A stretch of 64,000 nt of DNA, from assembly GCA_963707865.1 (NCBI GenBank), contig OY970175.1, positions 208,748 to 272,747 on the forward strand, given 5' to 3'. The notes below the pieces were generated by a model, which was not told where the DNA came from, did not search any database, and worked only from the letters and a program-made list of their open reading frames with translations. The translations under genes and the position numbers were made by a program. The DNA is from an uncultured bacterium (lineage in GTDB: Bacteria; Patescibacteriota; Minisyncoccia; UBA6257; 2-01-FULL-56-20). Below are positions 7,647 through 62,851 of the stretch, piece by piece. Position 1 is the first letter of the stretch; every line of letters starts with the position of its first letter.

Positions 7647-7943
7647 TTAGAGCGATTGCTGGCTGACCGGCTGATCGTTCAATCCCTGGGCAATGTTTGC
7701 GGAGTCGGAAGCAAGGCCGTTCAATTCACCGTCTATTTGCGCGAGATCTTGGTTCAGATCGGCATTGGAATTGCCGCTCGTAAGCACGGGACCGCTCGTT
7801 GTCGTCGGTGCCGTTGGTTGCGGCGCGGAGGGAGCATATGCCGTGGAAGGGCTGCTGCTTTGGCTTCCCATCCACCACCAAACGCCGCCCACGATGAGAA
7901 CGAGAACTACCACGATAATGATAATCTTTGCTGTGTTTGACAT
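7647..7943 (-). CDS. Small membrane protein (single TM, Pro/Ser/Thr-rich extracellular tail)
   Basis: 'MSNTAKIIIIVVVLVLIVGGVWWWM' TM then low-complexity region; start chosen at internal Met (ORF track gives 7647..8021). Confidence 0.45.
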   Translation of the reverse strand: MSNTAKIIIIVVVLVLIVGGVWWWMGSQSSSPSTAYAPSAPQPTAPTTTSGPVLTSGNSNADLNQDLAQIDGELNGLASDSANIAQGLNDQPVSQQSL

Positions 7944-8040
7944 TGTTATTGACCTCTTGTCCGATTGTTTATCGACCTTTGCGCACTCCTCTATTATATA
8001 TACGTTTTTCTTTGAGGTCATGTTGCGTTATAATCACAGC

Positions 8041-9408
8041 ATGGATGCCGTACAAGGCATTTTGAATGCGGCGGGCCAAGTGTTTTGGTACGCGTGGTGG
8101 ATATGGATTCCCCTCGTTTTGTTCCCGCTTTTTGAGTCCACGTGGCTTTTTTGGCGGCAGCAGGTTTTCAAGCGCGAATTGGAATTCGTGCATTTGGAGA
8201 TCCGCATCCCGCGCGAGACGAAGAGAAGCCCGCGGGCGATGGAGCAGGTGCTCATGTCTATCCATAACCTTCGCAATGCACCGGCAGACCCGGAGGAAAA
8301 ATGGTGGGACGGTGAGGTCACGCGCTGGTACGCGCTGGAGTTGGTGAGCATTGGCGGAGAGATTCATCTGTACCTACGCGCGTGGAGAAAGCAAAAGGAG
8401 ATCATCCAGGCGGCGTTCTTTGCCCATTACCCCGATGTGGAGATCGTGGAAGTGGATGATTACATTGACCGGCTGCCTGCGAGCGTGGGAGAGATGTACA
8501 AGAGCGGTTACGACCTTTGGGGATCAGAGTTTACCCTTGCGCGTGAACCCGCGTATCCCATCAGGAGCTACGTGGATTTTGAATCACCGGACGAGGAAAA
8601 GCAGTTTGATCCCATGTCCACCTTCCTTGAGGTTCTCGGCAAGGTGAAGCGCGAGGAGATTTTGTGCGTTCAGTATCTCATCGTGCCGGCGAGCATGGAT
8701 TGGAGAGACAAGTATCAGTCCTTGGTTGAATCATTGCGCACGAGGAATCAGAAGATTGGTGCGGCGGGAGGAGCGAAGCACACCCTTGGGATGGAATTCC
8801 CGCACATCCTTCCCACGTTCCCGGTGAAAACGAGCGGAGAAGGTGAGGATGGCCTGCGCGTCCTTGGAAAGGCAATCATGACGCGGACGCCGGGCGAGAC
8901 CGATGTCCTCAAGGCAGTGGAAGAGAACCTTTCCTTCCCGCCGTTTAACACCCTTATTCGATTCGTCTATTTCTCGCCGAAGGAACTGTATTTTGACACG
9001 CTGCCGCGCCGCGGATTGACCGGCGCATTCAACCAATATGCCGCCGCTAACCTTAATTGGTTTACGCGGAACGAGGAAATCAGCACGAGGGTTAAGTTTT
9101 GGGACTTTCCGTACCTCTTTCCGAATGCGCGCCTTGATCGCAGAAAGAGCCGCGTGCTTGCGGACTATCGCGCGCGGGAAATCCCGCCGGAGACCTCAAT
9201 GGGAAAGGTTATCCGCTCAAAATTTTTGCACTGGGAGCACTCCCGCATGTTTCTCTTGAGCACGCGGTCGCTTGCGACGCTTTTTCATCCGCCGACCTAC
9301 CGCGTGATCACGGCGCCGCACATCAAACGGGTGGTGAGCAGGAAGGCAGGCGCGCCGGCTGGCCTTGCGATCTACGGCGGGGAAGAGGAGATGGAGAAAT
9401 TCAAATAA
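8041..9408 (+). CDS. Hypothetical membrane-anchored protein; first gene of the T4CP-like ATPase cluster
   Basis: N-terminal TM 'FWYAWWIWIPLVLFPLF'; translationally coupled to following genes (ATG overlaps stop at 9408). Start could be 8020 or 8041; ORF track gives 7693. Confidence 0.6.
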   Translation: MDAVQGILNAAGQVFWYAWWIWIPLVLFPLFESTWLFWRQQVFKRELEFVHLEIRIPRETKRSPRAMEQVLMSIHNLRNAPADPEEKWWDGEVTRWYALELVSIGGEIHLYLRAWRKQKEIIQAAFFAHYPDVEIVEVDDYIDRLPASVGEMYKSGYDLWGSEFTLAREPAYPIRSYVDFESPDEEKQFDPMSTFLEVLGKVKREEILCVQYLIVPASMDWRDKYQSLVESLRTRNQKIGAAGGAKHTLGMEFPHILPTFPVKTSGEGEDGLRVLGKAIMTRTPGETDVLKAVEENLSFPPFNTLIRFVYFSPKELYFDTLPRRGLTGAFNQYAAANLNWFTRNEEISTRVKFWDFPYLFPNARLDRRKSRVLADYRAREIPPETSMGKVIRSKFLHWEHSRMFLLSTRSLATLFHPPTYRVITAPHIKRVVSRKAGAPAGLAIYGGEEEMEKFK

Positions 9409-11383: not shown

Positions 11384-11563
11384 ATGTTCGTGCACCCTGT
11401 CTTTTTTGTCATAGGCATTATTTTGGTTATTTATCTCATAGCGACTGATTTCCATGCGCATCGGCGCATCAAACATTTGGAAAAAACCGTGAGGAAGCTC
11501 GAGGGCATAAACGGGGTGGAACATTCAAAACCTCGCTGGGAGAAGAAGGAGGATCTCTCATAG
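11384..11563 (+). CDS. Possible small membrane protein (59 aa)
   Basis: ATG 11384 eight nt after ATPase stop; 'MFVHPVFFVIGIILVIYLIATDF' TM; not in ORF track (<60 aa). Confidence 0.3.
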   Translation: MFVHPVFFVIGIILVIYLIATDFHAHRRIKHLEKTVRKLEGINGVEHSKPRWEKKEDLS

Positions 11564-11651: not shown

Positions 11652-12101
11652 TTATTGGGATTTCCCACCGATCCCCGCCTCGCAAGAGGCGGGGTGAATA
11701 TTTTTAAGGCCATAGGTGGTCGAGAGTGCGTCGGTGACTTTTGCGAACGATTCATCACTCAACGTTGTCAGCCTTTTTACAAGTCGCTTGCTATCAAAGG
11801 TTCTTATCTGGCTCAAAATTGCTGTATTAGTTTTGCCGCCCTGAGTTATCGGAAAATACCATCTGCCTTCTTTTGCCCGACTCGTGAGCGGGATGCCGAG
11901 AAATGAATTCGCGTTGAATTTTTTGAATATGATGACGGGGCGCGTGAACCGTTTGCCTTTGCCGTAAATCTCCACGCCGATGTTTATACCAATACTGCAC
12001 CACCAGATTTCGCCTTCCTTGAAAAGCGTTTTTGATGGCGCGCCGTGCAGTATTACTGCTGTTCGCCACCAGCCGATGAGTGTAAGAAAATATTGCAGCA
12101 T
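11652..12101 (-). CDS. PemK/MazF-family toxin-like endoribonuclease (orphan; no adjacent antitoxin ORF evident)
   Basis: Kid/PemK-like motifs 'GEIWW', 'GxExxGKxRFTRPVII', 'IPLTS', 'QIRTFDSKRL...L..L'; true start uncertain. Confidence 0.6.
   Translation of the reverse strand: MLQYFLTLIGWWRTAVILHGAPSKTLFKEGEIWWCSIGINIGVEIYGKGKRFTRPVIIFKKFNANSFLGIPLTSRAKEGRWYFPITQGGKTNTAILSQIRTFDSKRLVKRLTTLSDESFAKVTDALSTTYGLKNIHPASCEAGIGGKSQ
11673..11706 (+). terminator. Intrinsic terminator hairpin (9-bp GC stem, GCAA tetraloop) followed by T-rich tract, ~30 nt downstream of the promoter's predicted start
   Basis: CCCCGCCTC-gcaa-GAGGCGGGG then 'tgaatattttt'; U-tract only on plus strand. Confidence 0.55.
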
Positions 12102-12171: not shown

Positions 12172-13962
12172 ATGACAAGCGAGACCAAAATTTGCCAAAA
12201 TTGCAAGCAATCCTTCGCGATTGAGCCCGAGGATTTTGCGTTCTATGAGAAAATAAGAGTTCCGCCGCCGACATGGTGCCCGGAATGCCGGCTCGTGCGA
12301 AGACTGTTGTTTTTCAATGAGCGGACGATCTATAAACGCCCTTGCGCCCTTTGCGGGAAGGATTTTATGTCTCTTTTTCCCAAAGAGTCGCCATATACGG
12401 TGTATTGCGATGCTTGCTGGTGGTCTGACAAATGGGATCCGCTCTCTTACGGCAAGGAAGTGGATTTTTCGCGGCCGTTTCTTGAACAACTTCATGAACT
12501 CTTCCGGCAAGTGCCGCAAATCGGGCGGAACGTCATCACGTCCACGTTCGTAAACAGCGACTATTGCAACGCCGCGTCGTATCTCAAAAATTGCTATCTT
12601 ATTTTTAATTCCGACTACGACGAGGACTGTATGTTCAGCACCTATTTGGAACGGAGCAAGAGTTCGTTCGACCTTTATATGTGCGACCATTGCGAGCGGT
12701 GTTATGAGGGAAGCAACCTTTTGAAGGACTTCAATGTCCGGTGGTCGGACAACTGCAACGAATGCATAGACGTTTCTTTCTCCAAAAATTGCATTGGTTG
12801 TTCCCATTGTTTCGGCTGTGTGAACCTCCACCGCAAGCAGTATCACATCTGGAATCAGTCGTACTCAAAAGAGGAATATTTCAAAGAGACTGCGAAGTAC
12901 GATATTGGTTCGTTTCGTGCGGTGGAGGAGTTCAAGAAGCGGAGCCGCGAACTTTCCCTGCGCTATCCAAAAAAGTTTGCCGAAGGGTTCCATAATGAAA
13001 ACGTAAGCGGGGATTATGTGTATAACTCAAAAAATACGTTCTGGAGCGACGAAGTGGGCGATTGCCGCGATTGCAAATTCTGCCAGTTTCTTTTCCTTTT
13101 CCCGACGAGCGATGCCTACGATTACACCATGTGGGGCATCGCGGAGCGGATATATGAATGCATGGGGGCAGGCGGGGGCGCGCGAGACGTGAAGTTTTGC
13201 ACCAACACATGGACCGAGCATATGAATGTGGAATATTCCAGGGACGTGTTTCTCGCAAGCAGCGACCTCTTTGGTTGCATAGCACCCAAGAAGTACCGGT
13301 TTTGCATTTTGAACAAACAATATTCCGAGGGCGAGTACCGCGCGCTTCGCGGAAAAGTGATCGCCCACATGGACGCCATGCCGTATGTGGATAGAAAGGG
13401 ACGTGTCTATAAATACGGTGAATTCTTTCCGCCGGAATTGTCGCCGTTCGGCTACAACGAAACAATTGCCCAAGCGCACCGCCCCCTCACAAAAGACGAT
13501 ACAGAGAAAGCCGGATTTCTCTGGCACCATCTGGAAGCGACCACCTATCAGCCGACCGTGCGCGCGGAAGAGCTCCCTGACAATATCAAAGAAGTTGCCG
13601 ATTCGATTCTGACCGAAGTGATTGAGTGCGCGCATAAAGGAAATTGCATCGATCAATGTCCCGGCGCTTTCCGAATCACACCCCAAGAGCTTGCATTCTA
13701 CCGGCAATCGCTCATACCGCTGCCGCGCCTGTGCCACAATTGCCGCCATTACGCCCGCCTTTTTTATCACAATCCGATTCTGCGTTTGTTCAAAAGGAAA
13801 TGTCAGTGTGGCGGTAGCGACTCGGCAAATGGAGTTTATAAAAACGCAGCGACGCATTTCCACGGCACCGCGTCCTGCCCCAACGGGTTTGAAACCTCCT
13901 ATGCCCCCGATCGTTCTGAGATCGTGTATTGCGAGCAGTGCTACAACGCGGAGGTGGTGTAG
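12172..13962 (+). CDS. Cys-rich multi-zinc-ribbon repeat protein of unknown function (paralog 1)
   Basis: N-terminal 'CQNCK...PPPTWCPECR' and 'CALCGK...YCDACW' ribbons; many CxxC/NC repeats; C-terminal ribbon 'LCHNCR'. N-terminal ~80 aa and nucleotide sequence closely match ORF starting 62886. Confidence 0.8.
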   Translation: MTSETKICQNCKQSFAIEPEDFAFYEKIRVPPPTWCPECRLVRRLLFFNERTIYKRPCALCGKDFMSLFPKESPYTVYCDACWWSDKWDPLSYGKEVDFSRPFLEQLHELFRQVPQIGRNVITSTFVNSDYCNAASYLKNCYLIFNSDYDEDCMFSTYLERSKSSFDLYMCDHCERCYEGSNLLKDFNVRWSDNCNECIDVSFSKNCIGCSHCFGCVNLHRKQYHIWNQSYSKEEYFKETAKYDIGSFRAVEEFKKRSRELSLRYPKKFAEGFHNENVSGDYVYNSKNTFWSDEVGDCRDCKFCQFLFLFPTSDAYDYTMWGIAERIYECMGAGGGARDVKFCTNTWTEHMNVEYSRDVFLASSDLFGCIAPKKYRFCILNKQYSEGEYRALRGKVIAHMDAMPYVDRKGRVYKYGEFFPPELSPFGYNETIAQAHRPLTKDDTEKAGFLWHHLEATTYQPTVRAEELPDNIKEVADSILTEVIECAHKGNCIDQCPGAFRITPQELAFYRQSLIPLPRLCHNCRHYARLFYHNPILRLFKRKCQCGGSDSANGVYKNAATHFHGTASCPNGFETSYAPDRSEIVYCEQCYNAEVV

Positions 13963-13987: not shown

Positions 13988-14938
13988 TCATGTCCGTACA
14001 TTTGTCCCCTCGATAGATTGAAGATATTCGACCGGCGTCTTTCCGGCAAGGGCAAGGTGAGGACAGATGGTATTGTACCAGGCACAGTAAGCGGCCTGTT
14101 TTTGTTTTGCCTCGGCCACGGTGCGGAACGCCACCTTGTTCCAGAACCGTTCCCGGTCGTTGCGGTGGGAACGTTCCACCTTGCCGTTCTGCGCGGGATG
14201 CCCGGGAGCGATGAGATAGTGGACCATCTTCTGTTTTGCGCAGGCGAGGTCGAACGGATGCAACCGCGGCTTCATGGGGTCAGCTGATTTCGGATATCCT
14301 ATGTAGCGATTCGTAAAGATGGATCCGTTGTCGGTCTTCACCGCACGGATGCGGAACGGTGCGGCCGCAATGACCCTTTCGAGAAACAGGATCGCGGTTC
14401 TCGTGGATTGTTCCTGGGTTACCCACAGATGCCGCCACCGGGTGCAGCAGTCGATCGCGGTGAACTGGTAGAGCCAGTTGCCCTTGAATTTCCTCACGTA
14501 GACGACGTCGATCTCCACCATCTCGCCGGGGAACGTGGCCGTCGGTTTCCACTTTTCCTTGGGCGTGAGACGCTTCTTCGTACGCGAGAGGCCTTCACGC
14601 TTCAATACTTTTGCAATGCCGCGTGCCGAGAGCCGCATGCCTTCGCGGGCGAGGAGGTGTACGAGCACGTCCGGACCGAGATCGGTCTCCGTTCTCATAG
14701 TCCGGATCTTTTTCACGATATCTCGCGAAAACTGTTTTGGGTGTGCGTGCGGCCTGCGCGATCTGGGCACGAGGGCGCTCGCCCCGCCACTGCGATATGC
14801 CGCCACCCAACGCTTCAGCGTACGGTATGAAAATGGTGCGTGGGCAGCAATGGCCTTGATGCTCATCTCTTTTTCAAGATGCGGCCTGATCCACCGCATT
14901 CGTTCCTCCGCTGCGTCTTTGGCAAGTGTTTGTGGCAT
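13988..14938 (-). CDS. IS481-family DDE transposase
   Basis: 'FTAIDCCTRW', 'VKTDNGSIF', 'PGHPAQNGKVERSH' rve/IS481 motifs; start taken at 'MPQTLAKD' (ORF track extends to 15073). Confidence 0.85.
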   Translation of the reverse strand: MPQTLAKDAAEERMRWIRPHLEKEMSIKAIAAHAPFSYRTLKRWVAAYRSGGASALVPRSRRPHAHPKQFSRDIVKKIRTMRTETDLGPDVLVHLLAREGMRLSARGIAKVLKREGLSRTKKRLTPKEKWKPTATFPGEMVEIDVVYVRKFKGNWLYQFTAIDCCTRWRHLWVTQEQSTRTAILFLERVIAAAPFRIRAVKTDNGSIFTNRYIGYPKSADPMKPRLHPFDLACAKQKMVHYLIAPGHPAQNGKVERSHRNDRERFWNKVAFRTVAEAKQKQAAYCAWYNTICPHLALAGKTPVEYLQSIEGTNVRT

Positions 14939-14980
14939 ATTCCCCAGCTTACGCTTCGAGGGGCCATATGTATGTGCAGA
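13992..14980 (-). mobile_element. IS481-family insertion sequence (copy A)
   Basis: Imperfect terminal inverted repeats 'TGTCCGTACATTTGTCCCCTCGA' (13992..14014) and 'TCGAGGGGCCATATGTATGTGCAGA' (14956..14980), ~18/23 matching; single DDE transposase inside. Confidence 0.8.
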
Positions 14981-15033
14981 GTACCTTGTTGACTGGCGAA
15001 ATCGCAGGAATCGTGGTATAATAGGAACAGAAC

Positions 15034-17022
15034 ATGGAGGAAGTTCCGGATAAAAACGTAATATATTTCGCACGAACCGATTTTCGCAATCAAGATCGGC
15101 TTTTTGGTATTAAGCGGAGCGACCGGCGCCAGCATATGTATGTCATAGGAAAAACCGGTACCGGCAAAAGCGCGCTCCTCAACAATATGGCCGTGCAGGA
15201 TATCGCGAACGGCGAGGGGCTTTGCGTGGTGGACCCGCATGGTGAGCTCGTGGAGGGGCTTATGAAAAGGATCCCGGAGGAACGGATGAAGGATGTCATC
15301 TATTTCAATCCGGCAGATACGGATTTTCACATCGGCTTCAACGTGCTGGAGCTGCCCGACCCAAAGTACAAGCACCTTGTGGCATCGGGACTCATGGGAA
15401 TTTTCACAAAGATTTGGGCGGGCGTCTGGTCGCCGCGCATGGAATACATTTTGAATAATTGCGTGCTCGCGCTCTTGGATACTCCGGGTTCCACGCTCCT
15501 CGGCATCCCTCGGCTTCTGACCGACAAAGATTACCGGCAGAAGATCATCGCGAACATAAAAGACCCCGTCGTGAAGGCGTTTTGGATCCACGAATTTGAA
15601 GGGTGGCAGGACCGGTTCAGGAACGAGGCCATCGCGCCGATACAGAACAAGGTGGGCCAATTCCTTTCCACCGCGCTTATCCGCAACATCGTCGGCCAAT
15701 CAAAGAGTACTGTGGACATTTTTGACGTGATGAACGAGGGAAAAATCTTCCTTGTGAATGTTTCCAAGGGTCGCATCGGGGAGGACAATTCTGCGCTCCT
15801 GGGCGCGATGCTTATCACGAAGATCCAGCTTTCGGCAATGGAGCGCGTGCGCGTCCCCGAGGACGAACGTGTGGACTTTTATCTTTATGTGGACGAGTTC
15901 CAGAACTTCGCCACGGATTCCTTCGCGGGCATCCTTTCCGAAGCGCGGAAGTACCGCCTGGATCTTATTCTCGCGCACCAATATATCGGCCAGCTCATCA
16001 CCGACACTTCGACGAGGGTGCGCGACGCGATCTTTGGTAACGTGGGAACAATGGTCACGTTCCGGGTGGGTGCTACCGATGCGGAGTTCCTGGAGAACGA
16101 GTTCACGCCTGAGTTCGTGATAGAAGACATCGTAAATCTTCCGAATTATTCCATCTATCTGAAGCTTATGGTGGACGGCGTGACGGCGCGCCCATTTTCC
16201 GCGGCCACGCTCCCCCCGCTTCAGGTGAAAACTTCCGCGATGGTAGAATCCGAGATCATCAGGATGTCACAGAAGCGCTACGCCCGGCCGCGCGAGGTCG
16301 TAGAGGAAGAGATCAATCGCTGGAGCGGCGTGATGGGACCGCCTGCGGCTACCAGTGCGGAAAAGAAAGGCGGAGATACGACGAGGTACGAAGCCGTATG
16401 TTCTTCATGCGGCAAGATGACGACGTTGCCGTTCGAGCCGACGCCGGGCCGGCCGGTGTATTGCCGCGATTGTTTGAAGAAAATAGAAGCAGGCGAACTT
16501 CAACCGATACGGGTGCCGCGCGCGTCAGTCGTACGCACGAGACCGCAGAAAAAATACGCAGATGATTTGAGTTATCTCGGCATTGAGTTCCCGGAGCAGG
16601 GAGCGCCGGCCGAGCTGCAGCCGGCGACGAGAAGGGCGCCGGTACCGGTGCGTCCCATGGGTTCCATGGATGGAAGGGGAGGGGCAGGAGCACCAATTTC
16701 CGGTTACGGGCCAAAAGCGGCCATGCCAACCTCTGTACCGGCCGCTGCGCCAGCCGCGCCGCCATCCGCCGAGCCGGCGGGGCGGACGCTTTCGCTATCT
16801 GAATTGAAATCGGCGGATCGGAGACCGAAGCTGAAGAAATCGCAACAACACGAGGAGATCAACATTTCCGAACTTCGGGAGGCAATCAAGGCATCATTGA
16901 GCGCAGATATCGGTGCGGGCTCCGCGCAGGCCGCCGAGGCGGAAAAAAGCGTCAGCGCTGACACCGATAAACGGGATGGCGAAGAAGACGGCAGCGACGA
17001 GGAGCGTGTGCGCCGCATTTGA
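15034..17022 (+). CDS. TraD/VirD4-like P-loop ATPase paralog with C-terminal CxxC-x17-CxxC zinc ribbon and long low-complexity acidic/Ala-Pro tail
   Basis: Walker A 'GKTGTGKS', 'VDPHGE', Walker B 'LYVDEFQNF', 'AHQYIGQL'; 'CSSCGKMTTLPFEPTPGRPVYCRDC'. Confidence 0.8.
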   Translation: MEEVPDKNVIYFARTDFRNQDRLFGIKRSDRRQHMYVIGKTGTGKSALLNNMAVQDIANGEGLCVVDPHGELVEGLMKRIPEERMKDVIYFNPADTDFHIGFNVLELPDPKYKHLVASGLMGIFTKIWAGVWSPRMEYILNNCVLALLDTPGSTLLGIPRLLTDKDYRQKIIANIKDPVVKAFWIHEFEGWQDRFRNEAIAPIQNKVGQFLSTALIRNIVGQSKSTVDIFDVMNEGKIFLVNVSKGRIGEDNSALLGAMLITKIQLSAMERVRVPEDERVDFYLYVDEFQNFATDSFAGILSEARKYRLDLILAHQYIGQLITDTSTRVRDAIFGNVGTMVTFRVGATDAEFLENEFTPEFVIEDIVNLPNYSIYLKLMVDGVTARPFSAATLPPLQVKTSAMVESEIIRMSQKRYARPREVVEEEINRWSGVMGPPAATSAEKKGGDTTRYEAVCSSCGKMTTLPFEPTPGRPVYCRDCLKKIEAGELQPIRVPRASVVRTRPQKKYADDLSYLGIEFPEQGAPAELQPATRRAPVPVRPMGSMDGRGGAGAPISGYGPKAAMPTSVPAAAPAAPPSAEPAGRTLSLSELKSADRRPKLKKSQQHEEINISELREAIKASLSADIGAGSAQAAEAEKSVSADTDKRDGEEDGSDEERVRRI

Positions 17023-19798: not shown

Positions 19799-20878
19799 AT
19801 GTCTAAAAAATTAGAAACAATTTCATGGATTATAAACAGCAGGTGTAATTTGGAATGTTTGCATTGTTATACTAAATCTATCCAAGGCAAAGAACTAAGG
19901 CCGGATTACTCTGAAAAAGATATAGCACTGATGGCAAAAAATATTGGTAGTGTAAATCCTAAGGTTGTTATTATTTCCGGCGGAGAACCCTTAATAGATA
20001 AAGACTTGCTAATTTTTTTAAGAGAGGCCCGCAAAATCGCTTCTGAAGAGTTATGGCTTTGCACTAATGGAATGTTGCTTTCTGATGAATTTGTGGAACT
20101 CTTGAAGAAAAAAGGTGTAAACGGCATAACCTTGAGTCTGCGTCATCCAAATCCGATAAAAGAAGCAGAAATTTCTCAAAATAACGGGATTCATGGAAGG
20201 GTATTGAAAGCTATAAAAAAAATAGAGCGGGCAGGCATACGTGTCGTGCTTGAAATGACGATAATGAAATCAAATTGTGATAGCATTGATGATTTTATAG
20301 ACTTATGCGCTTGCAACAAAGTGGACACTATAATGTTTAAAAGATTTAGACCGATTGGCCGAGGAGAAGAAAATAATTTGGCATTATCAAAAACAAAAAA
20401 TAAACAAGTATTGCACCACATTTTTTTAAGGGCGAAAAGCAATCCAAAGCTAAATATAAGAGTGCATGATCCGTTGTATAGTTTAGAAATTTATGAGCAC
20501 TTTAAAAATAACAAAATAAAAACTAATGTTCCAGATTTTGATTTTTGTTCAAATATACAAACAGATGAAAATGAATCTCAGCGTTATTGGGGTTGCAGTG
20601 CAGGAATAGAATGGGTAGGCATAGACCCCCTTGGAAACGTCAGTCCATGTCCGCTTTTGTTGTATACGGGATTGGTTATCGGCAACATAAGAGAGAATAA
20701 ATTGTCAGAAATAATGAAAACATCTCCTGTCATAAAAGCATTGGAAGATGGCTATGAAAATGGGAAGTGCTCAAAGCGCAAGATTTGTGGCGGATGCCGG
20801 TCGCACGCCGCTGCAACAGGAAAGGGGTATCTTTCAAAAGATCCTATGTGTTTGCAAGAATGCGCAGAATGTTTTTAG
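19799..20878 (+). CDS. Radical SAM enzyme with C-terminal SPASM domain
   Basis: 'CNLECLHCY' CxxxCxxC; 'SGGEPL'; C-terminal Cys cluster 'CSAG...CP...CGGCRSHA...C..C'. Confidence 0.85.
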   Translation: MSKKLETISWIINSRCNLECLHCYTKSIQGKELRPDYSEKDIALMAKNIGSVNPKVVIISGGEPLIDKDLLIFLREARKIASEELWLCTNGMLLSDEFVELLKKKGVNGITLSLRHPNPIKEAEISQNNGIHGRVLKAIKKIERAGIRVVLEMTIMKSNCDSIDDFIDLCACNKVDTIMFKRFRPIGRGEENNLALSKTKNKQVLHHIFLRAKSNPKLNIRVHDPLYSLEIYEHFKNNKIKTNVPDFDFCSNIQTDENESQRYWGCSAGIEWVGIDPLGNVSPCPLLLYTGLVIGNIRENKLSEIMKTSPVIKALEDGYENGKCSKRKICGGCRSHAAATGKGYLSKDPMCLQECAECF

Positions 20879-20911
20879 TTAAACTGAACCTTATTTACCC
20901 TTGTTTATTAT

Positions 20912-22606
20912 ATGAAAAAAGAAATTGCCTCTCTTATAAAAGAAAAATTAAAATCAATAACAGATATAGATATAAATGAAGAAGAATTAGTCGGTAAAAT
21001 TGAAATACCACCCAATAAAGAATTGGGTGATTTTGCATTCCCATGTTTTTTTGTTGCTAAAAAGGTATCTATGAGTCCCCACACCTTAGCTCTTAAATTA
21101 AAAGAACTGTTTGCTGACGTTAGCGAGTTCAATGAGGTCAAGGTAATTGGTCCATATTTAAATTTATTTGTAGATAAGGTCAATTTTACTAAAAGAGTTT
21201 TGTCAGAAATTGATCAAAATTTTTCAACTACAATTTCTGATGCAAGTAAAAGAATTGTCATAGAATTTCCATCGCCAAATACTAATAAACCATTACATCT
21301 TGGACATTTAAGAAATATGGCAATAGGCGAATCACTAGCCAGAATATTGGAAAGTAATGGCAACAAGGTGTTTAGAGTTAATTTGTTTAACGATAGAGGG
21401 ATTCATATTTGTAAGTCGATGTTGGCTTATAAAAAATTTGGGGGGAATAAGGAACCAGACAAAAAACCAGATCATTTTGTTGGCGACTATTATATAAAAT
21501 TTAACGATCTCGCAAAAGAAAATGATAACTATAATAAAGAGGCGCAAGAAATGCTTCTTCAATGGGAAAGCGGTAATGAGGAGGTTAGATCTCTTTGGAG
21601 AAAAATGAACGCATGGGCGTATCAAGGACTTAAACAAACGTTCGAATTGTTCGGTATCAAGCATGATAAATATTATTATGAAAGTGAAATATTTAATCAC
21701 GCTAAAGAACTTGTTTTGGAAGGACTAAGATCGGGCGTTTTTAAAAAACGAGATGATGGTGCTGTAATTATGGACTTAACCGAAGATGGACTAGACGAAA
21801 AGGTGCTCTTGCGGCCAGATGGTACCACGGTTTACATGACCCAAGATTTATATCTGATAAAATTAAAAGATATGGATTATAACCCGGATAAATCCATTTA
21901 CATTGTTGGGAACGAACAAGATTATCACTTTAAAGTGCTATTCCTTATAGTAAAAAAAATGGGCTGGAAACAACAATTAAAGCATTTATCATATGGAATA
22001 GTAGCACTGCCAGAAGGTAGAATGAAATCACGGGAAGGCAATGTTGTGAACGCCGATGATTTAATAGAAACGGTTACACAGCTTGCAAAGAAAGAATGTG
22101 TTGATCGCAATAAGAATATCAGTAAAGATGAGCTAGAATATAGAAGTAAAAAAATCGCATTAGCCGCCATAAAATATACCCTACTTAAACCTAATATATT
22201 TAACGATATGGTTTTTGATCCCAAGAAGTCAATTAGCTTTGACGGAGATACTGGACCATATTTACTTTATTCTTATGCGCGCGCCTCTTCTATACTAGAA
22301 AAAAGCGAGACTGAAAACAAAAACCAATCCCAAGATATAAAGAGAATAGATGTTTATGAACACGAACTAGTTAAAAAAATTAGTAATTTCCATGAAATAA
22401 TAAAAAGTGCAGCAGATGAATTAAATCCTTCAATTGTTGCTCATTATTCCTTTGATTTAGCTAAAACATTTAATGAGTTTTATCACGCCTGTCCCGTACT
22501 AAAATCTGACAATGAGGATATTAGAATAAAATTAGTTAAGGCATTTTATGTCATCTTTAAAAAATCCCTTTATTTATTAGGTATAGATGCATTGGAAAAA
22601 ATGTAA
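20912..22606 (+). CDS. argS: Arginyl-tRNA synthetase (class I aaRS), full length, encoded inside the AT-rich island
   Basis: HIGH motif 'PLHLGHLRN', KMSK-type 'RMKSREGN', C-terminal anticodon-binding DALR-like region; 564 aa. Confidence 0.85.
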   Translation: MKKEIASLIKEKLKSITDIDINEEELVGKIEIPPNKELGDFAFPCFFVAKKVSMSPHTLALKLKELFADVSEFNEVKVIGPYLNLFVDKVNFTKRVLSEIDQNFSTTISDASKRIVIEFPSPNTNKPLHLGHLRNMAIGESLARILESNGNKVFRVNLFNDRGIHICKSMLAYKKFGGNKEPDKKPDHFVGDYYIKFNDLAKENDNYNKEAQEMLLQWESGNEEVRSLWRKMNAWAYQGLKQTFELFGIKHDKYYYESEIFNHAKELVLEGLRSGVFKKRDDGAVIMDLTEDGLDEKVLLRPDGTTVYMTQDLYLIKLKDMDYNPDKSIYIVGNEQDYHFKVLFLIVKKMGWKQQLKHLSYGIVALPEGRMKSREGNVVNADDLIETVTQLAKKECVDRNKNISKDELEYRSKKIALAAIKYTLLKPNIFNDMVFDPKKSISFDGDTGPYLLYSYARASSILEKSETENKNQSQDIKRIDVYEHELVKKISNFHEIIKSAADELNPSIVAHYSFDLAKTFNEFYHACPVLKSDNEDIRIKLVKAFYVIFKKSLYLLGIDALEKM

Positions 22607-22615
22607 AATTGATTT

Positions 22616-23680
22616 ATGCCTCATTGTAAAAAAAATTGTATTAGCTTATTCGTTACAAATCAATGCAATTTATCCTGCCGGTATTGTTATTGTGAGAAAA
22701 AATCGGAAAAGCAGTCTATCAATATTGATTTTGCTAAAGCGGGCATTAACGATTTTTATTTAAATTTCGGCCATATTTATTTGCGCCTTTTCGGTGATGG
22801 AGAGCCAACTTTAGAATTTAAAAAAATTAAGTCCATTATTTCGTTTGCAAGAAAAAAAGATAAAAATGCCATAATCGAATTACAAACCAATGGCTTTTTC
22901 CCTAAAAAAATTGCCGATTATATAACTAAAAACATAGATATTGTTTGGATATCTTGTGATGGAGTACCAGAAATTCAAAATTATTATAGGCCCACTATAA
23001 ATAATACCCCGACAAGCACGATTGTCGAAAAAAATATCCGTTATTTAACTAAAAAAATTAGGACGCTAGGAATCAGAATTACCATTGGCAATAAAAATGT
23101 AAAACGACAAAAAGAAATCATCGACTATTTCAAAGATCTAGGAGTAAAATATATCTATACGGATCTATTATTTAAGCCAATAAAAAATAAATTGGGTGTT
23201 GAAGGCACGAGTCCTTTAAATTATGCCAAGCAATTTATTGTTGCTAAAAAATATGCCGAACGAAACAATATTTTTTACGGCTCTTTTTTTGAAATAAATT
23301 TTGATGGTAAAACTGATATTCACTGCAGAGCATGCAATCCATCACCTCACCTAACTTCTGATGGGTATGTTACCTGCTGTGATATGGCTTATAACGGAAC
23401 GACCTTTCCCGTTATGGTATACGGAAAATACGATCCTAAAACCAAATCAATTGTTTATTACGAAGATAAAATAAAGGTAATTCAATCGAGGCGAGTTGAC
23501 AATATTCAAGAATGTAAAAATTGCGAAATTAGATATAACTGTGCTGGGGGTTGTTTGGGCGAAGCTCTTAATGAATCGGGATCCATTTTTAGTATTAAAA
23601 AAGAAAATTGCAGAGCAATTAAATTTCTCGCCAAGCGATTGCCTTTAAATAAAAAAAAATTACCAGTTTTTCATCCATAA
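22616..23680 (+). CDS. Radical SAM enzyme with SPASM domain
   Basis: 'CNLSCRYCY'; 'FGDGEPTL'; C-terminal 'CKNCEIRYNCAGGCLGEA...C'. Confidence 0.85.
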   Translation: MPHCKKNCISLFVTNQCNLSCRYCYCEKKSEKQSINIDFAKAGINDFYLNFGHIYLRLFGDGEPTLEFKKIKSIISFARKKDKNAIIELQTNGFFPKKIADYITKNIDIVWISCDGVPEIQNYYRPTINNTPTSTIVEKNIRYLTKKIRTLGIRITIGNKNVKRQKEIIDYFKDLGVKYIYTDLLFKPIKNKLGVEGTSPLNYAKQFIVAKKYAERNNIFYGSFFEINFDGKTDIHCRACNPSPHLTSDGYVTCCDMAYNGTTFPVMVYGKYDPKTKSIVYYEDKIKVIQSRRVDNIQECKNCEIRYNCAGGCLGEALNESGSIFSIKKENCRAIKFLAKRLPLNKKKLPVFHP

Positions 23681-23689
23681 TTTAAAGTA

Positions 23690-24589
23690 ATGAGAATATT
23701 GTATTTAGTAGCAACAAATAAATGTACCCTATCATGTAGCTATTGTTTTTATAATACGGGCCTTTCTAAAAAAAGTTTATCTGATATAAAAACAGAAAAA
23801 ATCTTAGGAAAAGTAAAGTCGCTCTCAAAATATTTTGATCATGTTATTTTTACTGGCGGAGAGGCATTGCTTATAAAGGATATATTTTTACTAGCTTCAG
23901 AGTTTAAAAAGAATAAAGTTAAAACAAGCATTATAACTAACGGAACTCTATTAACTCATGATATTTGTAACAAAATATCTTCTGTATTTGATAAGGTGTC
24001 CCTTTCTTTAGATTCTCTTGATTCAAAACTAAATGATCTAACTAGGGGAAAATCTTCTATTGTAAGAAATGGGTTGAATAATTTGTTAAACGTTAGGTCA
24101 GAAAGCCTTGAGATTGAAATAATACAGACAATTACGGCTGTAAATTATGAATCCATTGATGAGATGATAAAGTTTTGTAATGAAAAAAACATAAAACTTT
24201 GGCTTCCGCCAGTAGATTTAAATTATAATAACCCGTTTTCTCTTAAAAGATTAAATGCTGTTCAAGTGGATAAGTTAAAAAAAAATTTTAAAAGATGGAT
24301 TAAGTTTAAGTCCGGCAATGATAAAAAAGAACAAATTGCTTTAAGCGACTTTTTGAATAATATAGAAAGTTTATTGCAAGACAAATCGATACAGATTCCT
24401 TGCAAGATGGGAGTTGAAAATTTTGTGTTAGATCCTGATGGTAACATATATGCGTGTTTTTTTAGGAAAGATCTATTTTTTGGTAACTTATATAAAGATA
24501 AATTATCGCAAATAATGAAAAAAATTCCTGGAAAAGACATATTAAGCAATTGTGTTAGTTTGGGTTGTTTATCTTGTACAGATTTTTAA
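23690..24589 (+). CDS. Radical SAM enzyme (SPASM/twitch-like C-terminal Cys cluster)
   Basis: 'CTLSCSYCF'; 'FTGGEALL'; C-terminal 'CKMG...C...CVSLGCLSC'. Confidence 0.8.
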   Translation: MRILYLVATNKCTLSCSYCFYNTGLSKKSLSDIKTEKILGKVKSLSKYFDHVIFTGGEALLIKDIFLLASEFKKNKVKTSIITNGTLLTHDICNKISSVFDKVSLSLDSLDSKLNDLTRGKSSIVRNGLNNLLNVRSESLEIEIIQTITAVNYESIDEMIKFCNEKNIKLWLPPVDLNYNNPFSLKRLNAVQVDKLKKNFKRWIKFKSGNDKKEQIALSDFLNNIESLLQDKSIQIPCKMGVENFVLDPDGNIYACFFRKDLFFGNLYKDKLSQIMKKIPGKDILSNCVSLGCLSCTDF

Positions 24590-24598
24590 ATGAAAAAG

Positions 24599-24629
24599 GA
24601 TACCCAAGGACTGTAAAGGCGTGGGTATC
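24599..24629. terminator. Hairpin (GATACCCA...TGGGTATC) between convergent island genes
   Basis: 8-bp inverted repeat between 23690..24589(+) and 24660..25538(-). Confidence 0.4.
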
Positions 24630-24659
24630 TATATCCAACTCCGTGATAAATTTGTTTTT

Positions 24660-25538
24660 TTAACTATACTTTTCTATTTTTTTAAGATCTTTTTCTCGAT
24701 TTTGTGCAATCAAAATCTCTTTTAGTGTTGCGTTAAAGTTATCAAATAGGTTATTTTGAGTTAGTATTTCATTTTTATTTTTTTCGTTAGCAGTTATTAT
24801 TACTTCACCGTTTGGTCTAACGATTATTTCCGGGTTGACAGTGTCGTTTGCTTCGCGGGTAACTTTTATTTTTCCTGAAAATTTTTTCTTTAGTTTATCT
24901 ACTTTTTCATTAAAGTCAGATGTTTCAATTAGCATTGTATCTAAGATGGGATCGCTTTCTCCCTTTCCCAATCTTCGAATTTGGTATAGTTTCCAGATAC
25001 TTTCGTTTTCTCTTATTCTTTTTTCATAGTTTAGTTTTAGCAAGAGGTTTCCTATGTTTTCCAAGTCATCAAAGTTTTGTTTAAATACGCAGGTCCCGAT
25101 TTTTAGTTTTATTTGAGGATATTTTTCAAGTATGTACTTTATTGAACTTATTGATCTTTCAAATCCTCTTTTGCCACGCCGGAAATCTATTTCTGGGCTT
25201 GATGCTTCAAGTGAGATCGCGATTGTGTTTAGGTATAGAGCTACCTTCGGCATTAGTTTAATCAGATTCGCGCCGTTTGTTTGCAAAACAATGTCTAAGC
25301 CCAGTTCTTTTTTGGCATATTTTATGAATTCGTATATTTTTGGGACCAAGGTAGGTTCTCCTCCAGTTAGTATTATTTTGGTGAGTCCAAATAATCTTAG
25401 TTTTTTTATAGCCTGTTTAAAATCATTTAGAGGTCTGTTTTCGATTTCTATTGGTGGCCCCCAACAGCCTGGGCAGTTTGCATCGCAACTACTTGTTACC
25501 TCTAAGTGAACGACAGGAGTTATAGTTAATTTTTGCAT
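24660..25538 (-). CDS. Radical SAM enzyme (no obvious SPASM domain)
   Basis: 'CDANCPGCW' CxxxCxxC; 'TGGEPTL'. Confidence 0.8.
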   Translation of the reverse strand: MQKLTITPVVHLEVTSSCDANCPGCWGPPIEIENRPLNDFKQAIKKLRLFGLTKIILTGGEPTLVPKIYEFIKYAKKELGLDIVLQTNGANLIKLMPKVALYLNTIAISLEASSPEIDFRRGKRGFERSISSIKYILEKYPQIKLKIGTCVFKQNFDDLENIGNLLLKLNYEKRIRENESIWKLYQIRRLGKGESDPILDTMLIETSDFNEKVDKLKKKFSGKIKVTREANDTVNPEIIVRPNGEVIITANEKNKNEILTQNNLFDNFNATLKEILIAQNREKDLKKIEKYS

Positions 25539-25578
25539 AAATAATTAGTAAATTTATAAATATTTAATTTTGTTGGTT

Positions 25579-26247
25579 TCATTTGCAATATTTTTTTGAG
25601 TAATTGTTTATTTTTTTTAAAATGTCTGGGTTTATTGTATAGTGTTGAGCATATTTTTGAATTAGACGGCGGGAGTTTGTAATTGAGTAGAAAGGTATCT
25701 TAAAATCTTCGCGTATTGATTTTTCAACTGTTTTTCCGTCACTCCTTGTTTCTAATCGGTTGGTGATTGAAATAACTGCTTGAATTTTTACGTTGAGTTT
25801 TAGCAATAGTTTTATGCACTTTCTTAAAGAATTCCCCGTTGTTACATCATCTTCGATTAAAACAAATTTTAGATTTTTCGGTACTGGCGTTACTGAGTAG
25901 TGCGTTTCTTTTGCTTGATATTTTTTCGGGTGTGATCGAAGTACTATTTGTGGAACTGTTGAAGGTTTTTTGTAATTTATTAGTGTATTTAAAACAATAG
26001 CTATTGGTGTTCCGGTTTCGGGGACCCCTAAGTAAGCATCTGGCTTTAAATTATTCTTTTTTGTGTAGGCATAGATATGCCTACACAATTTTTTCAAAGA
26101 TTCGGAGTTTTTCATGCTGTTTCTGATGTCCACATCATAATAGCTGATTCTTCCAGACTTAAGTTTGATTGGTTTTTTATTTATTATTAAGCAATCGTTA
26201 TCTAAGAGAAACTTTTCAAATTTTTCTAGTTCGAACATAATTACCAT
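25579..26247 (-). CDS. Type I phosphoribosyltransferase, orotate-PRTase (PyrE)-like paralog
   Basis: 'LKSGRISYYDVD' (compare chromosomal PyrE 'LVSGRFSPWYANW') and PRPP-binding 'VLIEDDVTTGNSL'. Confidence 0.7.
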   Translation of the reverse strand: MVIMFELEKFEKFLLDNDCLIINKKPIKLKSGRISYYDVDIRNSMKNSESLKKLCRHIYAYTKKNNLKPDAYLGVPETGTPIAIVLNTLINYKKPSTVPQIVLRSHPKKYQAKETHYSVTPVPKNLKFVLIEDDVTTGNSLRKCIKLLLKLNVKIQAVISITNRLETRSDGKTVEKSIREDFKIPFYSITNSRRLIQKYAQHYTINPDILKKINNYSKKYCK

Positions 26248-26750
26248 TTATGAATGATTGTAAGGGAATTTACCTTTATTTATTGATAGATGTTTTGCAA
26301 GATATCTGATTGCTTTATGGAACTTCTGTAATATTACAATTTTATATTATCTTTTTATTTTTGTCAAATTAAAATTCAGCTCAACCTAAGGTTTTAAAAT
26401 TTTACTGAACATACTACCGCCTGGAAGGCGGCAGGTTCACCGAGCGGCCGTCAATTTGAAATTGACTGTTGTCTTCCACCGGTTCGCCCTCTTGCTCCTT
26501 GATGTAGTCCCTGTCGAAAGATGTTTCTGAAGAGAAGGTGAGTAAAACAATAACGAAATCGATTGGGCCACTATTAATCGAAGGGCCAGTGCTTTTCGAC
26601 CGCTTTCCGAAGAATGTCGCGTGTCTCTTGCCTTCCGCCAAGTTTTTCAATCTTATGAGAGAACCCTCTCCGATGAAGAAGTGAACGGAATAATGAACGA
26701 AGTAATTGCAGCGCTGGAAGGAAAGGGGTAGGAGGTGAGAAAGTAGCCAA

Positions 26751-26993
26751 TCACCCTTTAATTTCTATGGCTCTTCTTGGGCAGCTTCTCTCTGCCATCT
26801 TTAGACAGACCATAAACTTTTTGTTTGATGTGAGTGCGGGAGGCACGGTTCTACGAACCTTAATTCCATTTTCGCCATAGGAAAAGACTTCGGGGCATAT
26901 GCTTACGCACGTACCGCACTGAGCGCACTTGCGTTTGTGATAGACAATTTTCATTTGCTGTTGGCTTTGTTGCTTCTCGCCTGATAACGACAT
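26751..26993 (-). CDS. Single-cluster 4Fe-4S ferredoxin
   Basis: 'CAQCGTCVSICP' ... 'CP'; true start may be internal Met (MKIVYHKRKC). Confidence 0.65.
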   Translation of the reverse strand: MSLSGEKQQSQQQMKIVYHKRKCAQCGTCVSICPEVFSYGENGIKVRRTVPPALTSNKKFMVCLKMAERSCPRRAIEIKG

Positions 26994-27052
26994 TTTAAAA
27001 TGGAATCGTGCTATTGTATAGGATGAAAATAGTTCAACGCATGGCTGGCATG

Positions 27053-62185: not shown

Positions 62186-62851
62186 GTGCGGTTCCACATC
62201 CTTACGATCTTCCCTGACATCTTTGATTCCTATCTCAAGGAATCTTTTTTGAAAAAAGCGCAGGAGAAGGGGCTTATTAAAATTACGCCGCACAACCTGC
62301 GCGACTTCACGAGCGACAAGCATAGGAAGGTGGACGACCGGCCGTTCGGCGGTGGGCCGGGGATGGTTTTGAAAGTGGAACCGATCCATAAGGCGGTTTG
62401 CGCGATTGCCCAAAAGTCCCGCGTTGCCTCACGCAAGCGGCGGGTTGTTTTGTTTTCGCTCCGCGGGAAGAAACTTGACGCGAAGGTCTCGCGCCGGCTC
62501 GCAAAGTACGACGAGCTCGTTTTGATCTGCGGCCGCTACGAAGGCGTGGACGAACGGGTAGTGCAGCATATCGCCGACGAGGAGATTTCAATAGGGGATT
62601 ACGTGCTCTCCGGCGGCGAACTCCCTGCGCTCGTCCTTATGGAATCTGTGTGCCGTTTCATCCCCGGTTTTTTGGGAAAACAGGAATCACTGGAGGAGTT
62701 CAAAGGTTCTTATCCTGCATACACGCGGCCGGAGGCTTTTGTTGCGAAGGGGAATGGTGCGAAAAGGAAAGCGCAAAAGTGGAGCGTGCCGAAAGTGCTC
62801 TTGTCCGGCGACCATAAAAAGATCGCAGAGTGGCGCCGTAGGAAACAGTAA
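62186..62851 (+). CDS. trmD: tRNA (guanine37-N1)-methyltransferase
   Basis: 'ILTIFPD', 'GGGPGMV', 'CGRYEGVDERV', 'ISIGDYVLSGGELPAL'. Confidence 0.9.
   Translation: MRFHILTIFPDIFDSYLKESFLKKAQEKGLIKITPHNLRDFTSDKHRKVDDRPFGGGPGMVLKVEPIHKAVCAIAQKSRVASRKRRVVLFSLRGKKLDAKVSRRLAKYDELVLICGRYEGVDERVVQHIADEEISIGDYVLSGGELPALVLMESVCRFIPGFLGKQESLEEFKGSYPAYTRPEAFVAKGNGAKRKAQKWSVPKVLLSGDHKKIAEWRRRKQ

Follow-up and report, generated by a model that had tools for sequence, protein, structure and literature searches.

A cysteine-rich protein family of Parcubacteria-group Patescibacteria and its genomic linkage to VirD4-like ATPases

What kind of protein is encoded by two large, cysteine-rich genes of a small patescibacterial genome, and with what might such proteins work? 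The question is raised by a 64,000-nucleotide stretch of DNA from an uncultured bacterium of the class Minisyncoccia (contig OY970175.1, positions 208,748 to 272,747; the whole of this stretch is hereafter referred to as the window), in which one complete gene (copy 1) and the first part of a second one (copy 2) encode related proteins that carry no functional name. Parcubacteria-group genomes measure about 0.5-1 Mb and belong to organisms thought to be symbionts of other microbes, and their distinctive genes are mostly unannotated. The sequences described herein have been deposited in databases as hypothetical proteins, and their component folds, namely treble-clef fingers and solenoid repeats, are familiar; the new elements are the definition of the family, its scale, the dynamics of its gene arrays and its link to orphan coupling-protein ATPases of the VirD4 type, next to which the proteins may, in our tentative view, act as adaptors.

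Predicted architecture of the two proteins

Copy 1 starts with ATG downstream of an AAGAGG-like ribosome-binding site, and its product (isoelectric point (pI) 6.2) scored 985 bits against the hidden Markov model (HMM) of the family; a hydropathy scan revealed neither a signal peptide nor a transmembrane segment in it, the maximum over 19 residues being 0.83. The full-length form of copy 2 (P0121, 592 aa) is 100% identical to the part encoded in the window and is located on the same 898,885-bp contig as P0001, the database protein corresponding to copy 1. The two proteins were aligned by BLASTP over 375 columns with 41% identity (E = 5e-100), and the similarity therefore spans all of the shared length, beyond the N-terminus. 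A preliminary description of the window, made from the letters of the sequence, had regarded the genes as paralogs of one family, which is in good agreement with this alignment; the N-terminal and Cys motifs that it quoted were found as written in both translations, and the similarity proved to be more than that of a generic zinc ribbon. Its statement that the conservation extends to the DNA level applies to nt 20-123 (81% identity, E = 1e-23), whereas the remainder of the gene is undetectable as DNA. A six-frame HMM search of the window identified exactly two family copies and no fragments.

Alignments of 39 and 134 members, together with an HMM alignment of 556 members, pointed to a fixed predicted architecture, which consists of paired treble-clef-type fingers, two repeat domains (M1 and M2), an alpha/beta linker and a second set of paired fingers. 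In the N-terminal module, which was modelled with a predicted local distance difference test (pLDDT) score of 93-96, the zf_Tbcl-like finger A of copy 1 comprises C8/C11/C36/C39; these cysteines are invariant or nearly so, and their covariation is accordingly not measurable. The basic stretch CRxxRRLxxRNERxLYKRK directly follows this finger. Finger B of copy 1 (C58-x2-C61-x16-C78-x2-C81), which resembles zf_Tbcl_2 or CxxC-x17-CxxC, behaves as one putative metal site: across the 556 members, the corresponding columns (58/61/79/82 in profile numbering) are lost jointly with phi coefficients of 0.6-1.0, and the tetrad is absent as a block in approximately 36% of the members. The C-terminal module likewise contains a finger A' (C486/C492/C496 plus C521/C524) and a finger B' (C544/C546, C569 and C587/C590, with conserved H562/H564), the cysteines of which covary in the same alignment (phi 0.80-0.85 for profile columns 497/522/525 and 0.93-0.97 for columns 569/587/590). 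A comparison of the N-terminal module (aa 9-83) with the C-terminal one (aa 494-591) using HHalign gave a probability of 99.3% (E = 7e-21), and BLAST matched aa 496-550 of copy 1 to the N-terminus of copy 2 (E = 6e-7), both of which support the N-to-C internal repeat proposed earlier. Judged from these alignments, the predicted metal sites, about four in number, appear to be confined to the two homologous terminal modules.

The paired-CxxC layout of zf_Tbcl, zf_Tbcl_2 and TIGR04272 is common to fingers A and B of both terminal modules, and the family motif C..C..F.I...E..FY......P.P..CP.CR is visibly of the zf_Tbcl type. Weak matches to PF13451 (zf_Tbcl) were obtained for 18 of the 39 members (best E = 0.0012) and matches to PF23477 (zf_Tbcl_2) at E <= 0.1 for 13 of them, copy 1 being matched by neither model. 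While aa 51-85 of copy 2 scored 24.7 bits against PF23477 and 23.2 bits against TIGR04272, the curated cut-offs (27 and 36 bits, respectively) were reached by neither copy, and a precomputed PF23477 match is recorded on a few database members. The zf_Tbcl and zf_Tbcl_2 models account for about 35 residues each and for roughly 12% of a family protein; they leave the other ~450 residues uncovered and give no indication of function. Within this remainder, the linker contains the near-invariant motif MPYxDxxGRxYxYGEFFPxExSPFAYNETxAQEYFPL. The mean information content is 2.6-3.2 bits at aa 1-60, 205-236, 367-440 and 565-596, and 1.4-1.9 bits at aa 241-360.

Both repeat domains end with a similar cap followed by a helix (CFGCVNLRNKxYxIFNxxYSKEEY in M1 and LFGCxGLRxKxYCILNKQYxKEEY in M2; common form, FGCxxLRxKxYCIxNxxYSKEEY), and HHalign related them to each other with a probability of 99.85% (E = 1.3e-30). 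Autocorrelation was marked at lag 12 in M1 (z = 8.1, equalled by 0 of 2000 shuffles) and at lag 13 in M2 (z = 5.4 versus shuffles), while at lag 18 the M1 signal fell below that at lag 12 and the M2 signal was negative. The preliminary description had taken this middle part for long arrays of zinc ribbons, a reading that did not hold: across the 556 members, the central cysteines mostly show an occupancy of 25-77% (30-77% for most of those in M1) and give way one by one to Ser, Val, Leu, Ile or Ala without covariation, so that the behaviour expected of a metal tetrad is seen in the terminal modules only. Considering this pattern and the spacing at every third residue, the central cysteines are best regarded as core-facing residues of a ladder rather than as metal ligands. 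Exceptions in occupancy are column 141, the near-invariant C210/C213/C216, which are accompanied by Cys or His at column 225, and C370/C379; the latter two groups might each supply an extra putative site in their domain. No invariant His was found within the repeat domains in the alignments. An iron-sulfur or ferredoxin-type protein was considered and rejected, since there was no CxxCxxCxxxCP motif, no Fe-S match in Pfam and no co-occurring tetrad among the central cysteines, and a DNA mimic was likewise rejected on account of the solenoid pI of about 5-7 and the small net charge.

As for the three-dimensional structure, a second AlphaFold2 model built from 134 sequences reached a pLDDT of 88.2 and a predicted template modelling score (pTM) of 0.89, values that suggest a single rigid body for the whole chain. 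Its central region was modelled as stacked short strands recurring at the repeat period (in M1, residues 133-139, 145-150, 157-160 and 169-172), with pLDDT values of up to 98 in M2, and M1 and M2 are probably beta-solenoids. In a search with Foldseek, as suggested at the outset, the first model (pLDDT 81) gave no match in the PDB, and the top PDB matches of the better model were all left-handed beta-helix proteins (3c8v, PerB, GlmU, LpxA/LpxD and gamma-carbonic anhydrases), at E = 0.04-1, probability <= 0.14 and TM-score <= 0.23, a structural similarity that is not significant. Foldseek against viral structures returned generic zinc-ribbon matches only, and a profile search of PDB sequences returned nothing at E <= 10. 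The left-handed beta-helix is thus the only PDB fold class retrieved for the repeat domains, with which it shares a stack of short strands and regularly spaced core residues that are small or aliphatic; however, the family has a period of 12 or 13 instead of the 6 or 18 of hexapeptide proteins, and it lacks a Hexapep match in Pfam, a catalytic His and evidence of trimers.

The antifreeze protein of Tenebrio molitor is a small, secreted, disulfide-bonded beta-helix with a 12-residue Cys ladder and a TCT ice-binding face. The 12-residue repeat and the regular core cysteines are common to this protein and the family. Unlike the insect protein, the family proteins are predicted to be cytoplasmic, exchange Cys for Ser, Val or Leu, carry zinc modules on either side of the repeats and have no antifreeze match in Pfam.

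Range of the family and turnover of its arrays

Three database searches seeded with diverged members retrieved at least 7,612, 3,997 and 6,809 matches of ~550-600 aa, nearly all of which are unnamed or labelled 'hypothetical protein'. In an exhaustive HMM search of 1.84 billion representatives at 50% identity, 5,147 were matched at E <= 1e-3 and 2,178 at E <= 1e-30, and the architecture was uniform across such representatives. The named sources are Lipton-, Jorgensen-, Staskawicz-, Nomura-, Giovannoni-, Portnoy-, Uhr- and Magasanikbacteria as well as Paceibacterota/Minisyncoccia, and the family is restricted to Parcubacteria-group Patescibacteria. One contig labelled 'uncultured Gammaproteobacteria' (L050) and one protein labelled 'Bacteroidia bacterium' (P0503) are probably mis-binned patescibacterial contigs and not occurrences beyond the phylum. 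The sole clear length outlier among the best 150 members, P0382 (731 aa), has a 184-residue N-terminal extension, which could be a fusion or the result of a miscalled start.

The proteins are matched by no family in Pfam or NCBIfam, and no known nucleic-acid-binding, toxin or enzymatic domain was detected in them; PHROGs gave only noise (E >= 0.026), PADLOC gave nothing, and no relative was found on 2.9 million IMG/VR viral contigs. The preliminary description had not recognised the family, and indeed no curated HMM library among these names it and no well-characterised family claims its members. A phage-borne or known anti-phage defence protein was rejected on the PHROG, PADLOC and IMG/VR results; one database record names a member 'putative phage protein', for which no supporting evidence was found. 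Literature searches on cysteine-rich, zinc-ribbon and paralogous families of Parcubacteria and the candidate phyla radiation (CPR) retrieved no published description, and a protein-family survey of the CPR mentions just 20 Parcubacteria-enriched families, mostly hypothetical. Even if the adaptor hypothesis set out below should be wrong, a usable family definition is obtained, comprising the architecture, four predicted terminal metal sites, two internal duplications and the motifs, and it corrects the tempting annotation as a multi-zinc-ribbon protein.

Open reading frame (ORF) calling in 85 family-selected loci, of which 80 came from genomes representing a species, yielded 235 family genes. 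The largest arrays contain nine genes of 1.8 kb in 16 kb (L027) and eight genes each (L017 and L026), and the family takes a conspicuous share of the limited coding capacity of these small genomes; at least 5-9 copies are present in several other genomes. Nearly all of the arrays are co-directional, every copy is a full-length ORF, and adjacent family genes are separated by a median of 9 nt (<= 60 nt in 82% of the cases). The best identity has a median of 44% within an array versus 57.5% to a gene of another species, 98% of the members are nearer to a gene of another species than to an array neighbour, no pair within an array reaches 70% identity, and clustering at 45% identity yielded about 35 subfamilies. 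The tandem arrays are thus operon-like and built of anciently diverged paralogs, and since these are ancient and each separately conserved, they are under selection. Recent tandem amplification and cassettes for antigenic variation were rejected because identity across species exceeds that within arrays and the window contains no partial cassettes.

The gene content of the arrays was nevertheless found to differ between close relatives. In a sister genome (L002, 887,956-bp contig), the flanks are 82-87% identical to the window at the nucleotide level, whereas five family genes occupy the site of copy 1 and three that of copy 2; these eight genes, carried at two sites of a 0.89-Mb genome, share 31-52% pairwise identity. 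Copy 1 is at most 52% identical to any of the five sister genes at its own site. Copy 2 is orthologous to gene three of the sister array (93% identity in aa and 92% in nt); in its first ~120 nt and the sequence before them, however, it is syntenic with gene one of that array. This mixed synteny indicates either a deletion or an expansion in the sister genome through recombination between conserved 5' ends. Third-codon identity between copies 1 and 2 drops from 54% over codons 1-50 to 30-49% in the blocks that follow, and the last ~90 nt of paralogs are 78-90% identical between genomes. At the DNA level, the 5' ends (12172-12300 and 62886-63010) and the 3' end (13870-13962) are conserved between paralogs, and the interiors are not. 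Since the copy-number junctions fall within the conserved 5' stretch, the paralogs may have recombined with one another or undergone gene conversion. An insertion sequence (IS) of the IS481 type lies downstream of copy 1, with a transposase ORF at 13988..15073 and 17-nt terminal inverted repeats at 13997-14013 and 14956-14972. As the syntenic site of the sister genome has no IS and four additional family genes, this element may be connected with a contraction of the array.

Linkage to VirD4-like ATPase genes

Among the neighbours in the 85 family-selected loci, the dominant cluster consisted of VirD4/TrwB/HerA-like ATPases, with 64 genes in 33 loci and 5% of all ORFs. The recurrent order, contiguous for example in L052, is SecD-SecF-(sigma-r4/HARE-HTH)-A1-small membrane protein-A2-(CutA)-family array-A3-TrmD-ComEC, where A1 to A3 denote the ATPases. 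In the window, this SecDF-to-ComEC block is interrupted: one piece lies at 7.7-17 kb and the other, about 50 kb away, at 58.9-64 kb, and either piece has one family gene left at the break (Table 1). We then assessed the association in the reciprocal direction using 80 metagenomic loci chosen solely by an A2 homolog. Family genes were present in 66 of them, amounting to 17% of all ORFs, and in 33 of the 35 loci that extend at least 3 kb on both sides of A2; a family gene lay no more than two genes from A2 in 59 loci and directly adjacent to it in 39. The linkage holds in two gene orders, A1-TM-A2-F(n) and A3-F(n)-A2 (TM, the small membrane protein; F(n), family genes).

Each of the ATPases has features of its own. 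A1 contains a hydrophobic N-terminal segment (hydropathy 2.25 near residue 75) and has no Pfam match at E <= 0.1, its sister ortholog being weakly matched by DUF8128, whereas A2 and A3 are soluble; A2 is 64-88% identical across lineages. The C-terminal zf_Tbcl_2 finger of A3 corresponds in type to finger B of the family and is followed by a long low-complexity C-terminal tail rich in Ala, Pro, Gly and Ser, and a C-terminal CxxC...CxxC was found in 14 of 24 A3-type genes of other loci. The small membrane protein, which has one N-terminal transmembrane helix, is kept in 9 of the 85 loci. CutA1, confirmed at 58 bits, occurs in 10 loci, in 9 of which it adjoins a family gene.

Such ATPases are common in these organisms. 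For comparison with the 64 genes in the family-selected loci, a patescibacterial survey counted 5,713 VirD4 homologues in 2,918 genomes, or about two per genome, of which 148 are near virB4, while most are orphans with no assigned role, and its authors raise a possible exaptation of the orphans (PMC12102498). The three ATPases linked to the family arrays, one of them membrane-anchored, resemble type IV coupling protein systems (VirD4/TrwB/TraG); unlike those systems, however, the loci are devoid of relaxase, virB4 and channel genes, A2 and A3 have no transmembrane segments, and no known substrate or adaptor family of type IV secretion resembles the family proteins. The reciprocal linkage offers a concrete candidate partner for the family and for the orphan VirD4-like ATPases alike.

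Table 1. Positions of the family genes, of the predicted domains of copy 1 and of neighbouring genes in the window
Feature	Position	Strand	Basis and remarks
Copy 1, complete family gene	12172..13962	+	596 aa, 37 Cys (6.2%); ORF list, exact database protein P0001
Predicted N-terminal zinc module, aa 1-100	12172..12471	+	Finger A, finger B, then conserved WWSDxWD motif
Repeat domain M1, aa 116-243	12517..12900	+	12-residue repeats, Cys/Ser/Val ladder every third residue
Repeat domain M2, aa 267-396	12970..13359	+	13-residue repeats; homologous to M1
Conserved alpha/beta linker, aa 397-480	13360..13611	+	Conservation profile of 556 sequences
Predicted C-terminal zinc module, aa 486-596	13627..13959	+	Diverged copy of N-terminal module
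Copy 2, second family gene, first 371 codons	62886..64000	+	Frame uninterrupted to window end; directly downstream of trmD
ATPase A1	7693..9408	+	First cassette gene; A2/A3 paralog by BLAST clustering; start codon uncertain
Small membrane protein, one N-terminal transmembrane helix	9408..9878	+	Between A1 and A2; hydropathy 2.77 at residue 1
ATPase A2, soluble VirD4/TrwB/HerA-like P-loop	9886..11376	+	TrwB_AAD_bind 40, T4SS-DNA_transf 33, DUF87 31 bits
ATPase A3, soluble VirD4/TrwB-like	15034..17022	+	zf_Tbcl_2 56 bits (aa 451-483), TrwB_AAD_bind 44, TraG-D_C 25.5 bits
IS481-type insertion sequence	13990..14980	-	Between copy 1 and A3; Pfam rve, rve_3, LZ_Tnp_IS481
PemK/MazF-type toxin gene	11652..12101	-	Divergent from copy 1; Pfam PemK_toxin 51 bits; same place in sister genome
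trmD	62186..62851	+	Directly upstream of copy 2; Pfam tRNA_m1G_MT 170 bits

Candidate functions and other features of the window

The strongest candidate for a partner of the family proteins is the ATPase assembly, given that the linkage was seen in both directions and that A3 carries a finger of the family's type. We therefore weighed, as the reading that we tentatively favour, a role of the proteins as non-enzymatic adaptor or specificity subunits of the VirD4-like ATPase cassette. In such a mechanism, the proteins would be rigid, zinc-stabilised solenoid adaptors and not enzymes, and their conserved parts, that is, finger A with the basic stretch, the domain caps, the YGEFFP linker and the C-terminal finger, would dock every paralog on one common partner. 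This partner would most likely be a membrane-associated VirD4-like ATPase assembly or a nucleic acid handled by it, while the variable solenoid faces would confer on each paralog a ligand or cargo specificity of its own. Recombination between the gene ends, which are conserved on both the 5' and the 3' side, would let the arrays grow or contract and exchange members.

Several observations weigh against this adaptor role. Within 20-kb loci, a family gene adjoined an ATPase gene 34 times versus 28.4 +/- 4.1 times expected at random gene order, and because strict adjacency is thus not above random order, our claim is restricted to linkage at the level of the locus, for which the reciprocal comparison provides support. 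Even that association could be inflated by inherited synteny, since the sampled loci are related (A2 being 72-95% identical among them). Many family genes lie far from ATPases and adjoin gltX, murG/ftsW, mreB or trmD; for instance, in the distant genomes of L003 (10001-13337) and L004 (10001-13317), a family gene is located directly upstream of gltX (tRNA-synt_1c), and the position after trmD is recurrent. On the structural side, M1 is the least confident part of the model, with a pLDDT of only 66-81, and the fold assignment rests on PDB matches of the better model that are not significant (E >= 0.04). In addition, the conserved acidic or polar residues E151, D167, E175, E299, D317, E329 and N381 of the repeat domains could form an active or metal-binding site. 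The mechanism itself, finally, is suggested by gene neighbourhood and conservation pattern.

As a broader and more doubtful extension of the adaptor role, the arrays might constitute, together with A1 to A3, the small membrane protein and CutA, an unrecognised envelope-associated machine of the Parcubacteria group, in which an exapted coupling-protein motor would be served by 5-10 or more exchangeable adaptor paralogs per genome. Such a machine could, for example, import or export macromolecules at the contact with the host. If true, this would assign a role both to the orphan VirD4 homologues and to one of the largest unannotated families of reduced genomes.

It is also possible, if unlikely, that the proteins act independently of the ATPases as DNA- or RNA-binding factors, the terminal fingers serving in transcription, RNA or tRNA handling or the processing of imported DNA. 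The fingers are of small treble-clef or ribbon types, and small Methanosarcina mazei proteins with this type of domain bind zinc, a role in transcription being hypothesised only (PMC12704099). The basic patch after finger A and the neighbouring trmD, gltX, EF-Ts, ribosomal protein and comEC genes and the gene for a sigma-r4/HARE-HTH protein are also consistent with such a function. However, the zinc modules lack an overall basic character (median pI 5.8 for the N-terminal and 7.3 for the C-terminal module; about 6 for the whole protein, with a net charge of -7), no known nucleic-acid-binding domain was detected, and the housekeeping neighbours differ among loci, which fits a general conservation of gene order better than a specific association. 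As for metal-dependent binding in a wider sense, the binding of nucleic acids or proteins by the terminal modules, which the preliminary description had inferred from the density of ribbons, is possible for the predicted sites.

Coupling proteins recruit secretion substrates. The family could accordingly represent a repertoire of translocated effectors delivered by the VirD4-like ATPases to the host or the cell surface via type IV secretion or another channel, with the conserved termini as the recognition signal and the variable solenoids binding host targets, which we consider rather improbable. The TrwB_AAD_bind, T4SS-DNA_transf and TraG-D_C signatures carried by A2 and A3, the many paralogs with variable middles, the turnover in copy number and content (copy 1 differing from all sister genes at its site despite similar flanks) and the abundance of orphan VirD4 homologues with no assigned role (PMC12102498) are in line with this explanation. 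On the other hand, neither virB4 nor any other channel gene was seen in the examined loci, and whereas typical effectors evolve fast, these ancient paralogs have kept stable orthologs (about 57% identity) and include no recent duplicates. A protein with four tightly folded predicted zinc sites and a rigid solenoid would moreover be awkward to secrete, no toxin or enzymatic domain is present, and many copies reside within housekeeping operons.

A hetero-oligomeric assembly, in which the paralogs would be joined head to tail via their homologous end modules into filaments or a scaffold, seems more improbable still. The end modules and the rigid, elongated repeat body recall polymerising solenoids, the ancient sets of equally long paralogs held in operons resemble complexes built of paralogs, and mreB is a recurrent neighbour; nevertheless, a difference of two versus eight copies at two sites between close relatives is hard to reconcile with a fixed stoichiometry.

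The two last explanations are disfavoured by the covariation, the periodicity and the HMM results. That the whole protein is a chain of metal-binding ribbons, whether multi-zinc, Fe-S or metal-buffering, is very unlikely: the 37 cysteines with runs such as C-x2-C-x2-C-x2-C, the candidate extra site in each repeat domain and the proximity of CutA1, a family associated with tolerance of divalent ions, would fit it, whereas the partial occupancy and single replacement of the central cysteines, unlike those of the terminal sites, and the lack of a ferredoxin-type motif and of any Fe-S family match in the searches described above would not. A left-handed beta-helix enzyme of the acyl-/acetyltransferase or gamma-carbonic-anhydrase type, with a substrate differing per paralog, is scarcely credible, given that the Foldseek matches that suggest it, although all of that fold, are not significant and that the repeat period, the lack of a Hexapep match and the lack of an invariant His in the repeat domains speak against it.

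The immediate surroundings of copy 1 are as the preliminary description had placed them, with a PemK/MazF-type gene upstream and an IS481-type transposase downstream. No antitoxin gene was identified at the site of the PemK/MazF-type gene. A further ORF between A2 and copy 1 (11384-11563), also present in the sister genome, encodes 59 aa with a hydrophobic helix at the N-terminus. Elsewhere in the window, the GC content of the region 20000-28000 is 0.33-0.39, as compared with 0.52-0.57 in the rest, and this low-GC island may be horizontally acquired DNA.

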